Positions 38,349 to 44,785 are shown, counted from the first letter of the whole stretch. The stretch: DNA of 63,656 nucleotides, filler included, from Cercozoa sp. M6MM (GCA_040357565.1; 11 parts of 11 records of this genome joined end to end with filler, not necessarily neighbours in it), one strand, 5' to 3'. Numbers and translations are program-made. Notes: generated from the sequence alone by a model not told the origin.

Positions 38349-41300
38349 ACGCGACAGAGCGGCCGCAATGTGCGTCTCTGACATCGACTGCCTCGCTGCC
38401 TGTCGGGCGGGGGGGGGGGGGAAAGGGGGGGGGGGGGAGGGGGGGGGGGGGGGTAAACCTCCAACTCGGCGTCCATGGCGTCGATGCGCACGATGAGGTC
38501 GCGGCACTCCTGCGTCGTCGCCGACGAGAGCACCTTGCCGCCCAGCTGCTCGGCCGCGTTCACCGCCGCTACGGAAGGGGGGTAAGGTGGGGTAAATAGG
38601 TGTGTAAATAGGTGTGTAAATAGAGGGTCAGATGGGGGTAAGATTGGGAGTAGAGAGGCGCGTAAACACGGGTGTTAATAGGGGTGTAAACAGGGATGTA
38701 AACATGGTGTAAACAGGGGTATAAATAGGGGTAAACAGGGTGTAAACATGGGTGTAAATAGGGATGTAAATAGCCGTGTAAACAGGGTGTAAACATGGGT
38801 GTAAATAGGGGGGGGGGTAAGATGAGGCTAAATGGGGAGGGGCAAGTAGGGGTAAAGCACCCTCAAGCTGCACACGATCGACAGCAGCCAGAGCGGCGTG
38901 CTGCTGCTGCGTCACCGCCTCGATCTCCTGCAGCGCCGACTCGGCCGCCTGCGAGTGCGTCGATCGCAGGTTCACCTCGCTGCACAGGGGTGGGTGAAGG
39001 GTACACCGGGGGGGGGGGGGAAACTACCGACACAGCGCCAGTGCAGCACGTAGAGCCTCCTCGTCCACTTCCTGCAGACACCGAGAGTTAAAGGGGACGA
39101 AGAGAGGGGGGTAAAACGCACCAGGAAGGCCGTCCGGCACTGCTCGTTGGCCTGCGCGACCTTGTCGAACAGCGCGCGCGCACTCCGCACCAACGAGTTG
39201 CCGTAGTCGTACTTGTCGGCCTGTACCAGGGGGTGGGGTCAGACGGGGGTAGGGGGGTAGGGGGGGGGTAAACCTGCGCCAGGGCGCGCTTGAGCTGCGA
39301 CTCGTCGACGGCCGCCATGGCTGCCTCCAACGCGCGCTTCGTGTTCGGGTCCATGCGGTTCTCTATGTACTGGTCGAACAGCCTGCGGGGGAGGGGGCAA
39401 GTAGGGGGTAAACATAGAGGTAAGTAGGGGGTAAACATAGGGGTAAGTAGGGGGTAAACATGAGGGTGAGTAGGGGGTAAACATGAGGGGCAAGTAGAGG
39501 TAAACATGAGGGTAAGTAGGGGGTAAACATAGGAGTGAGTAGGGGGTAAACATGAGGGGTAAGTAGGGGGTATACAGGAGGGGTAAGATGAAGGTGGGGA
39601 GGGGGGTAAACAGGGGGGTAAAACTACCGGTTGGCCTCGGCCACCACCGGCTCGTCCTGCAGCGACAACTCGTTGGAGCGCCGCACAGCACGCGCGAACT
39701 GCTTGAAGAACTCGAGGCACTGGCCCGAGTAGCCCGGCGTGTGGTAGCCCGGCAACGAGTCCGGCCGCGTCTTGTTCAACTCCTGGGAGAGGGGCAGGGG
39801 TAAAGGGTAGAGGTAGAGGGAAGGCAGGGGGTAAAGGGAAGGTAGGGAAGGTAGGGGTTAAGCACCTCCAGCTCCTGCACGAGGCGCGCGCGTTCGAAGT
39901 GAATCGAGCGCCGCAGCTCCATGGTCTTGTGCTCGTTGGACCGGTAGAACACCATGCTGCGTCCGAAGCGCACGTTGCTCATGTTGAGTCGGAACTGCTG
40001 CACCAGCGCCTCGCAGCCCGACAGTCTGTACCCCGTCCATATGTACACGTCCATATGTACCCCGTCCATACATGTACCAAGTCCATACATGTACCCCGTC
40101 CAATGTAAATACGGACATTTAAAAATATATATATATATATATAATATATATGTCACTACCCGGACGAGCGCTCGCCAAACACGACGCCATAACGCTCGCA
40201 AAAGTCCGAATGTTTCAAACGGAACGGGTAGCCCTACCGGCCAAGACCGGGGGGGGGGGTAAAGAAGGGGGTAAGACAGAGGCTTAGGGGGTAAGACAGG
40301 GGCTTGACCTACCAGCTTGCGAATCCGCACGGCCTCGTAGACACCCGAGTAGTTCAGCTGCTCGTGCACGTTGCGCGCCGTGAAAGCCATCGGGGCCTGG
40401 GGGGTAAGCAAGGGTAAGCAGGGGGAGGGGGGTAAGCAGGGGGATAGGCATGGGTGGGTAAGCACCTTCTGCTCGTTGGGCTTGATGCAGCGAATGTAGT
40501 GCGGCGACGTCGAGTAGAGCTGCGTCATGAGCACGTCGAGCTGCTGCTTGAACTGCTTGCCAAGCGATGCCTTGCGGTCGCTCTGCCCGTTGTTGCCGGC
40601 GAACAGCGTCTGCAGCAGCGGCAGGTGCGACGCGTGTACCAGGTCCAGCAGGTCCTGTCAGGGGAGAGCAAGGGTAAGCATAGAGGCTAAGCAAGGAGGG
40701 TAAGCATAGAGGGTAAGCAAGGAGGGTAAGCAAGGAGGGTAAGCAAGGAGGGTAAGCAGGAGGGTAAGCAGGAGGGTAAGCAAGGAGGGTAAGTCGAGGG
40801 GTAAACCTGAGACAGCGTGTCGCGGTTCTTGTCCATGAAGCCGTTGACGTTGTAGACCACATCGCCAGCGTAGTGCGACAGCACGAACGTGTCACTGCGG
40901 GGGAGGGGATAGGGGGGGGTAAACAGGGGGTAAAGGGGGTAAACCGTCCGTAGCGCGTGTCCTGCCGGTAGTAGCGACTGCCGCGGTGCTGCGTGAGACA
41001 CTTGTGCAAATAGCTCTCGTCGGCACCCTTGGGCATCTTGAGTTCCTCGTCCTGCACACACAGTTGTCCATATGTACCGTCCATACCAGCCTGCTGCCTC
41101 ATCCTTAATCAAACTTAAGGCTCCGGGGTACCAGTTTGGCCAGCAGGCCATGCGGCGCCTGTTCGATCAGGTCGAGGATCGGCTGGTTGTCCACAAAGTC
41201 GACGTGCTCAAAGTCAATCGCCTCTCTGGGGGGAGGGGGGTAAAGGGTAGGCAGGAGGAGGGATAGGGAGCACAGGTACCGCAGGTAGGTCTCCTCCTCC

Positions 41301-41460
41301 TTCTTGAAGACGTTCTGATTGAAGTTCTGCTGCAGTTTCTCGTTGGTGAAATTGATGCACAACTGCTCGAACGAGTTCTGCTCGAAGATCTCGAATCCGA
41401 AGATGTCCAGGATGCCGATCGTCTTCTCGTCACGCGGCGTTCCCGCAGGCACCGCCATCG
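38349..41460 (-). CDS. Myosin heavy chain: C-terminal half of motor domain plus helical tail (both ends truncated)
   Basis: [31 protein letters not shown] (switch II/relay), [63 protein letters not shown]; all junctions checked are GT-AG. Confidence 0.98.
38570..38860 (-). repeat. Representative intron made of TTTAC(A/C)CC(C)n repeats (family present in dozens of introns)
   Basis: Sense strand reads ..gtttacaccctgtttacccctatttatacccc..; similar arrays at 33764-33854, 39385-39627, 40655-40806, 42279-42436, 43026-43126, 50600-50950, 56465-56700, 56977-57360, 61520-61688, 63386-63634. Confidence 0.9.
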
Positions 41461-44585: not shown

Positions 44586-44785
44586 GTAGTTTACCCCCTC
44601 CCTACCACTCCACCACCCTCTTTTNNNNNNNNNNNNNNNNNNNNNNNNNNNNNNNNNNNNNNNNNNNNTTAATTAATTAANNNNNNNNNNNNNNNNNNNN
44701 NNNNNNNNNNNNNNNNNNNNNNNNCCTGCCGGGGGGGGGGGTAAGGGTAAGGAGAGAAGGGGTAGGGGTAAACAGCAGTAGTACA

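Follow-up and report, generated by a model that had tools for sequence, protein, structure and literature searches.

About one fifth of the predicted introns in a stretch of DNA from Cercozoa sp. M6MM (GCA_040357565.1) are filled with arrays of a short repeat whose hexamer, TTACCC, occurs nowhere outside introns in the sequence analyzed. The organism is now named Lemnamoeba sinaloensis (Rhizaria, Apofilosa) (PMC13746701). The window, meaning the whole stretch of DNA analyzed, spans 63,656 nucleotides with filler and consists of 11 short scaffolds separated by N-padded spacers; the counts all refer to this window, where short scaffolds that break at repeats abound. The presence of repeat arrays in the introns of M6MM is a real observation. 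As far as could be found, the feature is also unusual and undescribed, and no described intron class of this kind was found in the literature searched, which left out most subscription papers and bioRxiv supplements. The favoured reading, given a probability of roughly 0.45, is that breaks in gene bodies were seeded with a telomere-type repeat, which local slippage and duplication then expanded and splicing filtered.

The gene finder predicts 245 introns and divides the window into 24.8 kb of exon, 20.7 kb of intron and 16.8 kb of other DNA; the gene model is imperfect in that some genes are fused or missed, and the 'other' DNA takes in untranslated regions and uncalled genes. An intron is called an array if it contains at least two repeat units. 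By this rule, 51 introns are arrays, 45 of them C-rich (C-sense) and six G-rich (G-sense) on the sense strand; 26 introns contain one unit and 168 contain none. The initial annotation of this DNA had described the repeat as confined to introns, CpG-poor beside CpG-rich exons and usually C-rich on the sense strand, and the counts agree with it on each point. In a k-mer count over intron, exon and other DNA, all 168 TTACCC hexamers are intronic (154 sense, 14 antisense), with none in exons and none in the other, non-genic DNA, where a Markov model predicts 4.4 (P ~0.01). C-sense arrays contain 15 CpG per kb (observed/expected 0.36) versus 106 per kb (1.19) in exons. When each intron is shuffled with its dinucleotides preserved, TTACCC is found 42.5 +/- 5.6 times versus 155 observed, and the reverse copy GGGTAA 3.3 +/- 1.7 times (maximum 9 in 200 shuffles) versus 13 observed; the one-count gap between these figures and the main count arises from boundary handling. 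A two-unit pattern occurs 18 times and is absent from 100 shuffles. Words of the same composition are far rarer than TTACCC (155 copies, versus 14 for TATCCC and 4 for ATTCCC). The motif TRTTTAC, the forkhead core, is intronic in 49 of 52 cases, and nearly all G-quadruplex (G4)-type motifs are located in introns on the template strand. A metagenome scan returned 115 loci with at most two clusters per locus, none resembling the intron class; a viral scan for the 11-nt unit and an Rfam search of the window each gave no matches.

On its G-rich strand the unit reads G3-6TAA(A)(CA), with a G-run mostly of 3-6 followed by TA, TAA, TAAA, TAAAC, TAAACA or TAAAGA. Neighboring units are most often 11-12 nt apart (54 of 165), and the autocorrelation has maxima at 12, 23 and 35 nt. 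The spacers between G-runs form the nested series TA/TAA/TAAA/TAAAC/TAAACA, and prefix forms outnumber suffix forms by 41 to 10, so that truncations preserve the start of the tail. The full TAAACA spacer is present in 11 different introns and TGTTTACCC in 14 introns on five scaffolds. Arrays are about 46 to 292 nt long. The first unit lies no more than 20 nt from the donor in 36 of 40 C-sense arrays (mostly 2-20 nt), and the arrays extend to the acceptor, with the last unit usually 9-33 nt upstream of the AG. Identical unit pairs make up 23% of pairs within an intron and 4% between introns (permutation maximum 8%); since units match about five times more often within than between introns, local duplication does much of the amplification. 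Folding of the RNA of five array introns predicts no stable structure (z -0.67 to 0.70). Variant arrays of TTAACCC (GGGTTAA on the G strand), which is one base off canonical TTAGGG, are present at 51613-51753 and 58244-58333 on the minus strand. All 13 TTAACCC copies are intronic and in the sense orientation, and introns also contain seven copies of canonical CCCTAA.

The arrays are clustered by gene. Eight of the 15 genes with at least eight introns have none, versus a permutation mean of 0.8 and a maximum of 5 in 5,000 permutations, and the fraction of array introns per gene follows the GC content of third codon positions (GC3; Spearman 0.70, n=22 genes). Array-free genes are also intron-rich, and neighboring introns of one gene differ in whether they carry an array. 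Array and other introns use the three phases alike. In three genes, the nearest array is at least 551 bp from the ATG.

Both orientations of the array exceed the shuffles, and the preference for C-sense has a parallel in the splice sites. Flipped in silico, the C-sense arrays would hold 35 internal YAG per kb in place of 2.3 (plain introns, 16) and 53 GGTR per kb in place of 1.3 (plain introns, 6); the many cryptic splice sites of the G-sense orientation are proposed as the reason that G-sense arrays are rare. Neither this explanation nor the clustering by gene and the GC3 link had figured in the initial annotation. Five of the 45 C-sense arrays begin with GT+T1-3ACC and four end with TACCn-AG, and most array introns have ordinary GTRC or GTAG donors. 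The motif is not needed for splicing, and 168 introns have no unit. Positions -40 to -8 of 128 non-array introns show no enrichment of a branch-point motif (yTnAy 18.0 versus 19.1 per kb; TTTAC in 7 of 128). The initial annotation had offered a selected splicing signal as one explanation, which these two results leave weak. The acceptors of the same 128 introns are mostly TGCAG, CACAG and CGCAG. Donors across the predicted introns are GTAC, GTAG, GTGC and GTAT, with A at +4 in only 14 of 228, unlike the usual GTRAGT; rare +4 A donors may be tied to loss of N6-methyladenosine in U6 (METTL16).

Introns were delimited with the protein models available. One exon of the myosin scaffold (38349-41502) is a 100% match to NCBI MHM6MM_008827 of Cercozoa sp. 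M6MM, and mapping of NCBI protein P0001 onto this scaffold gives 14 introns, all GT-AG. A second exon is a 100% match to NCBI MHM6MM_008026 (scaffold 55868-60165), where the introns were checked by mapping NCBI model P0016 and the manual G-sense calls were upheld. A self-trained gene finder, run with a neutral intron model and corrected by hand in places, supplied the remaining introns; those of 41603-44624 are given by the gene model alone, a homologue search with one ISWI-like exon having returned no match. Pfam-backed labels are limited to myosin, helicase C, FKBP and TPR, and four of eight Pfam queries had no hit (single exons of 'GlyRS', 'SPT16' and 'GRIP', and P0016). These three gene names are putative ones from the initial annotation, any other names beyond those labels are putative as well, and the 'ISWI' label likewise comes from the initial annotation, with the helicase C domain alone confirmed. 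The array genes and introns are as follows.

38349..41458, minus strand: myosin gene fragment (MHM6MM_008827), 14 GT-AG introns; PF00063, E 2e-96
38569..38860, minus strand: 292-nt array intron of myosin built of TRTTTAC(A)CCC units; protein mapping and repeat analysis
39221..39273, minus strand: myosin array intron, donor start GT+TTACCC; protein mapping
39383..39627, minus strand: 245-nt array intron of myosin with a higher-order unit of 23 nt (TACTTACCCC + TCATGTTTACCCCC)
39783..39865, minus strand: myosin array intron; protein mapping
40234..40312, minus strand: myosin array intron; protein mapping
40397..40465, minus strand: myosin array intron, TGCTTACC variant, 3' end TTACCCCCCAG; protein mapping
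40655..40806, minus strand: myosin array intron, 13-nt unit in ~9.6 copies; protein mapping and repeat analysis
40895..40944, minus strand: myosin intron of 50 nt, nearly all units; RNA predicted unfolded
41226..41279, minus strand: myosin array intron; protein mapping
41603..44624, plus strand: SNF2-family (ISWI-like) gene fragment, 19 predicted introns; helicase C PF00271, E 1.5e-05
41839..41891, plus strand: SNF2/ISWI-like G-sense array intron; gene model
42279..42436, plus strand: SNF2/ISWI-like array intron with ATCTTA and TGTTTA variants; gene model
42530..42599, plus strand: SNF2/ISWI-like array intron; gene model
42652..42709, plus strand: SNF2/ISWI-like array intron; gene model
43026..43126, plus strand: SNF2/ISWI-like array intron; gene model
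43189..43346, plus strand: SNF2/ISWI-like array intron interrupted by a 100-N assembly gap
43393..43463, plus strand: SNF2/ISWI-like array intron; gene model
43843..43895, plus strand: SNF2/ISWI-like array intron; gene model
44020..44092, plus strand: SNF2/ISWI-like array intron; gene model
44121..44183, plus strand: SNF2/ISWI-like array intron; gene model
44461..44540, plus strand: SNF2/ISWI-like array intron
33614..34016, plus strand: 'GRIP' gene, three array introns, one G-sense (33614-33684) and two C-sense
50258..53091, minus strand: 'SPT16' gene, 10 array introns, including the TTAACCC variant 51613-51753 and G-sense 51455-51538
55868..58333, minus strand: MHM6MM_008026 scaffold, nine array introns (seven C-sense, two G-sense) plus G-sense 57632-57691
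57632..57691, minus strand: G-sense intron with its donor G|GTAAG (at 57691) given by the repeat itself; P0016 mapping
61524..61688, plus strand: two array introns; gene model
62889..63634, minus strand: three array introns; gene model

The claim that the repeat fills most introns of the myosin and ISWI-like genes holds, with arrays in 9 of 14 and 11 of 19 introns, respectively. Two of the remaining myosin introns have one unit, one has a C-run without TTAC and two have a different filler of the GTCCATATGGAC type; the ISWI-like arrays are C-sense in 10 cases and G-sense in one. The wider spread that had been listed extends to 'SPT16' and 'GRIP', with the arrays given above, and for 'maspardin' amounts to one intron with a single unit. 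The four G-sense cases that had been named are correct, corresponding to introns 33614-33684, 41839-41891, 57632-57691 and 58006-58079. Three G-sense introns (57632-57691, 57801-57851 and 58006-58079) lie inside NCBI model P0016. A plus-strand gene at 57472-58100, which would make these cases C-sense, is ruled out because P0016 maps to the minus strand only. The antisense strand of MHM6MM_008026 in this interval mimics a spliced gene, with near-palindromic intron ends and G-sense arrays that read C-rich, and can mislead gene finders. P0016 itself (474 aa; 55868-58884, minus strand) has no Pfam hit, and a search with one exon returned no homologue except itself. In the myosin intron at 39383-39627 (minus strand), the unit TACTTACC presumably equals the 5' end of the U1 small nuclear RNA, and its antisense reads as perfect GGTAAGTA donors. 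The first ISWI-like intron has no frame-keeping GT donor (at 41630-41650), a case of either an assembly error or a non-canonical donor. The ten scaffold joints (e.g. 38249-38348) are N44-TTAATTAATTAA-N44 spacers and are not biology.

Other repeats also occupy introns of the window. A second shared intron motif is the palindrome GTCC-N4-GGAC (GTCCATATGGAC, GTCCGCGCGGAC), seven of whose eight copies are intronic, on four scaffolds (positions 43700, 51387, 44316, 50451, 63057, 41977 and 43750). Its half-sites occur in tandem arrays at 40026-40159 and 56788-56893, and the palindrome may be a footprint left by a transposon or else a site bound by a dimer. Introns 42096-42211 and 42785-42983 are filled with 20- and 35-nt tandem repeats rich in CACGTG and GAGTGAC, and long (TTG)n and (TTGAG)n arrays at 60266-60577 and 60987-61394 lie inside predicted introns.

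The arrays were also compared with the contigs of run X1, which possibly represents the source sample and is not independent support for them. Single X1 contigs span arrays with 0-1 differences (e.g. 38485-38760 and 51800-52125). In total, 19,870 X1 contig records match 3,021 bases of the myosin stretch, and the summed depth reaches 412,518 over array introns versus 274-857 in bins away from arrays, so similar units are present at very many other places in the run. A short-unit TAAGGG-type array matched only 19 records at ~2x single-copy depth, a count made on filtered contigs, which gives no hint of short units forming one large, pure array. Runs X2 and X3 had 4 and 5 short partial matches to the myosin stretch, respectively, and none to the short-unit array, and were left out of the evidence.

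The link between these introns and chromosome ends comes from a long-read genome of the organism, in which TTAGGG telomeres are reported to be lacking and TAA[G]n to occur both at the ends of five contigs and internally (PMC13746701). The intronic unit is the reverse complement of this contig-end motif. In the accessible text of PMC13746701, the internal copies are neither placed in introns nor called strand-biased, and no TERT entry for the organism was found in the accessible supplements of both genome papers. A telomere link of the intronic repeat gains real support from the contig-end motif, which stays putative as a telomere. With its variable G-run and nested truncations, the intronic repeat matches Schizosaccharomyces pombe, for which stuttering at G and a loosely set template boundary have been described (10.1101/047837), and mammals are an established case of telomerase-type insertion at breaks (PMC7215372). 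Under the favoured reading, a break would first receive a few units, in one orientation or the other, from a telomerase-like activity that stutters or by copying of arrays already present. The seed would then mutate and duplicate locally into an intron-specific 11-13-nt variant, a step shown by the similarity of units within introns. Exonic copies would be lost, as would most G-sense copies by way of their many GGTR donors and YAG acceptors, and C-sense copies, predicted to be unstructured and nearly free of splice sites, would persist. The process may act mainly in the high-GC3 gene class, perhaps in regions with more breaks and biased repair. The initial annotation had proposed, as one of two alternatives, a template-driven process that writes the repeat, and had likened the units to those of stuttering telomerases. 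The contig-end TAA[G]n, the nested spacers and the presence of both orientations uphold part of this proposal, but one template cannot make all arrays and much of the sequence reflects local duplication.

Several observations weigh against the favoured reading. The authors of PMC13746701 themselves doubt that the contig-end TAA[G]n is a telomere. In the short-read window, arrays of either orientation hold the ends of several scaffolds as well as gaps, and because scaffolds break there, contig-end copies could be assembly breaks. Of the 143 spacers that start with TA, just 54 correspond to a prefix of TAAACA, and TAAAGA, TAAGTA, TAAGCA and TAAGAT recur; with both TAAACA and TAAAGA common, one template cannot account for all units of the arrays. 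Other short motifs are likewise common to unlinked introns, so sharing alone needs no telomerase. With none of the 168 hexamers outside introns and with arrays clustered by gene, the placement within non-coding DNA departs from random. In four array-bearing genes, no array occupies any of the first three introns (0 of 12 versus 21 of 46, a post hoc comparison), and this is a pattern that random breaks do not predict. Direct repeats at the junctions show no excess, at 2.1 nt in array introns (n=47) versus 1.8 nt in others (n=131; p=0.22).

A first rival is convergent evolution of minisatellites without telomerase, in which transcription-coupled mutation bias, GC-biased repair and slippage drive one gene class to the same unit. 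The start was possibly a transposon minisatellite spread by intron-to-intron conversion, with the contig-end copies being assembly breaks. Clustering in one gene class, the GC3 link, local duplication and the other shared fillers all agree with it, as does the very high load of simple sequence repeats in the Lemnamoeba genome (PMC13746701). It also has a precedent in the periodic An/Tn clusters (PATCs) of Caenorhabditis elegans, reported to derive from Helitron minisatellites by transcription-coupled bias (10.64898/2026.08.08.743475). However, TTACCC is far above words of the same composition and its reverse copies are enriched too, no flanking element sequence surrounds the arrays, and Helitrons are unmentioned in the accessible text of PMC13746701. 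This explanation stays a strong rival, to be taken seriously even if its odds are clearly less than even. A selected cis-signal is unlikely as the full account. Here the duplex motif would recruit a DNA-binding protein, either a forkhead protein or a factor that binds telomere repeats, or else elongation, chromatin or splicing in one gene class would be tuned by C-rich RNA or by G-quadruplexes on the template strand. The deficit of copies in non-genic DNA, the absence of arrays near 5' ends and the intronic placement of the G4-type motifs and TRTTTAC all favour such a role, for which C-rich tracts bound by alphaCP are a precedent (PMC4797308). It fits poorly with the 168 introns that lack the motif, with neighboring introns that differ, with the wide range of array lengths and with a period of 11-12 nt rather than the 10 bp of PATCs. 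Moreover, a signal explains the upkeep of arrays and not their origin, which makes it compatible with the favoured reading; a selected protein-binding role could act atop either origin.

Bolder accounts give the repeat a part in making introns. The Lemnamoeba genome is reported to have 13 introns per gene and no Introner signal, and its authors call for another mechanism of intron gain (PMC13746701). One account holds that the telomere repeat and the intron filler are one pool, with a telomerase-like activity inserting the repeat at thousands of places within genes and occasionally founding spliceosomal introns with a unit-supplied donor; a variant of this account has recombination with intronic arrays cap the chromosome ends. 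It is regarded as doubtful, and if true it would provide a transposon-free route of intron gain in a genome of 27 Mb whose genes have 13 introns each. In a separate account, the repeat would create introns by giving a GT from TGTTTAC (C-sense) or GGTAA (G-sense) and using a nearby AG, which would meet the genome paper's wish for another mechanism and explain so many introns without Introners. The five C-sense arrays with a repeat-like start, the four with a repeat-like end and the one repeat-derived G-sense donor are consistent with this. It is nonetheless improbable given the lack of excess junction duplication, the similar phases, the intron-rich array-free genes and the ordinary donors of most arrays. 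The branch-point consensus yUnAy corresponds to TTTAC/CTTAC, and tandem duplication of an intron's own branch point and C-rich pyrimidine tract would place the last unit 9-33 nt before the AG, where it usually lies. Units that start 2-20 nt past the donor in most arrays, reversed copies, and the lack of yTnAy enrichment in the branch window of non-array introns make this very improbable. A sequencing or assembly artefact is hardly credible: C or G runs of at least 10 and N gaps are located in arrays, but the arrays keep to the GT-AG ends of annotated introns, single contigs span them nearly without differences, and the motif is reported inside high-fidelity (HiFi) long-read contigs (PMC13746701).

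The genome paper leaves two puzzles unconnected, namely the lack of canonical telomeres with TAA[G]n at ends and internally, and the many introns without Introner signal. In the window, internal copies are intronic, strand-biased and found in one gene class, which joins the two. A direct test with public data of whether telomere-type repair shapes or creates introns becomes possible.

Among known systems, the M6MM arrays are most like the short interstitial telomeric sequences (ITSs) of mammals, which are internal copies of a chromosome-end-type repeat, occur in both orientations and are absent from exons (PMC7215372, PMC2246262). They are not filed as a member of that class, as random placement fails: mammalian ITSs are sparse, randomly placed and 31% intronic (PMC7215372), whereas here all hexamers are intronic, 51 of 245 introns are filled, 45 of 51 arrays are C-sense and the telomere identity is putative. 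The telomere modules GGTTAC(A)(C) of S. pombe (10.1101/047837) share a variable G-run and nested ends after a fixed core; unlike them, the M6MM core is GGGTAA rather than GGTTAC, several tails go beyond one template and the repeats lie inside genes. In another rhizarian, simple repeats [AT]n are present in half of 26 lineage-specific introns (PMC12730881). The M6MM arrays are not Introners, PATCs or acceptor-side C-rich tracts. Introner elements also place a common sequence in many unlinked introns, but the arrays have no excess of target-site duplications and no full-length identity between introns, and their units differ. The C-rich polypyrimidine tracts bound by alphaCP/PCBP are likewise C-rich intronic RNA (PMC4797308); they adjoin the acceptor, whereas the arrays fill the intron from the donor onward and some are reversed. 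PATCs are periodic, low-complexity intron DNA of one gene class for which a transcription-linked origin has been proposed (PMC4947018; 10.64898/2026.08.08.743475). They consist of An/Tn clusters with a 10-bp period, in contrast to TTTA/C-run units of 11-12 nt in introns of ~50-290 nt. Even conservatively read, the arrays are a counterpart of PATCs outside animals, and the template strand of their short introns is densely set with G4-type motifs.

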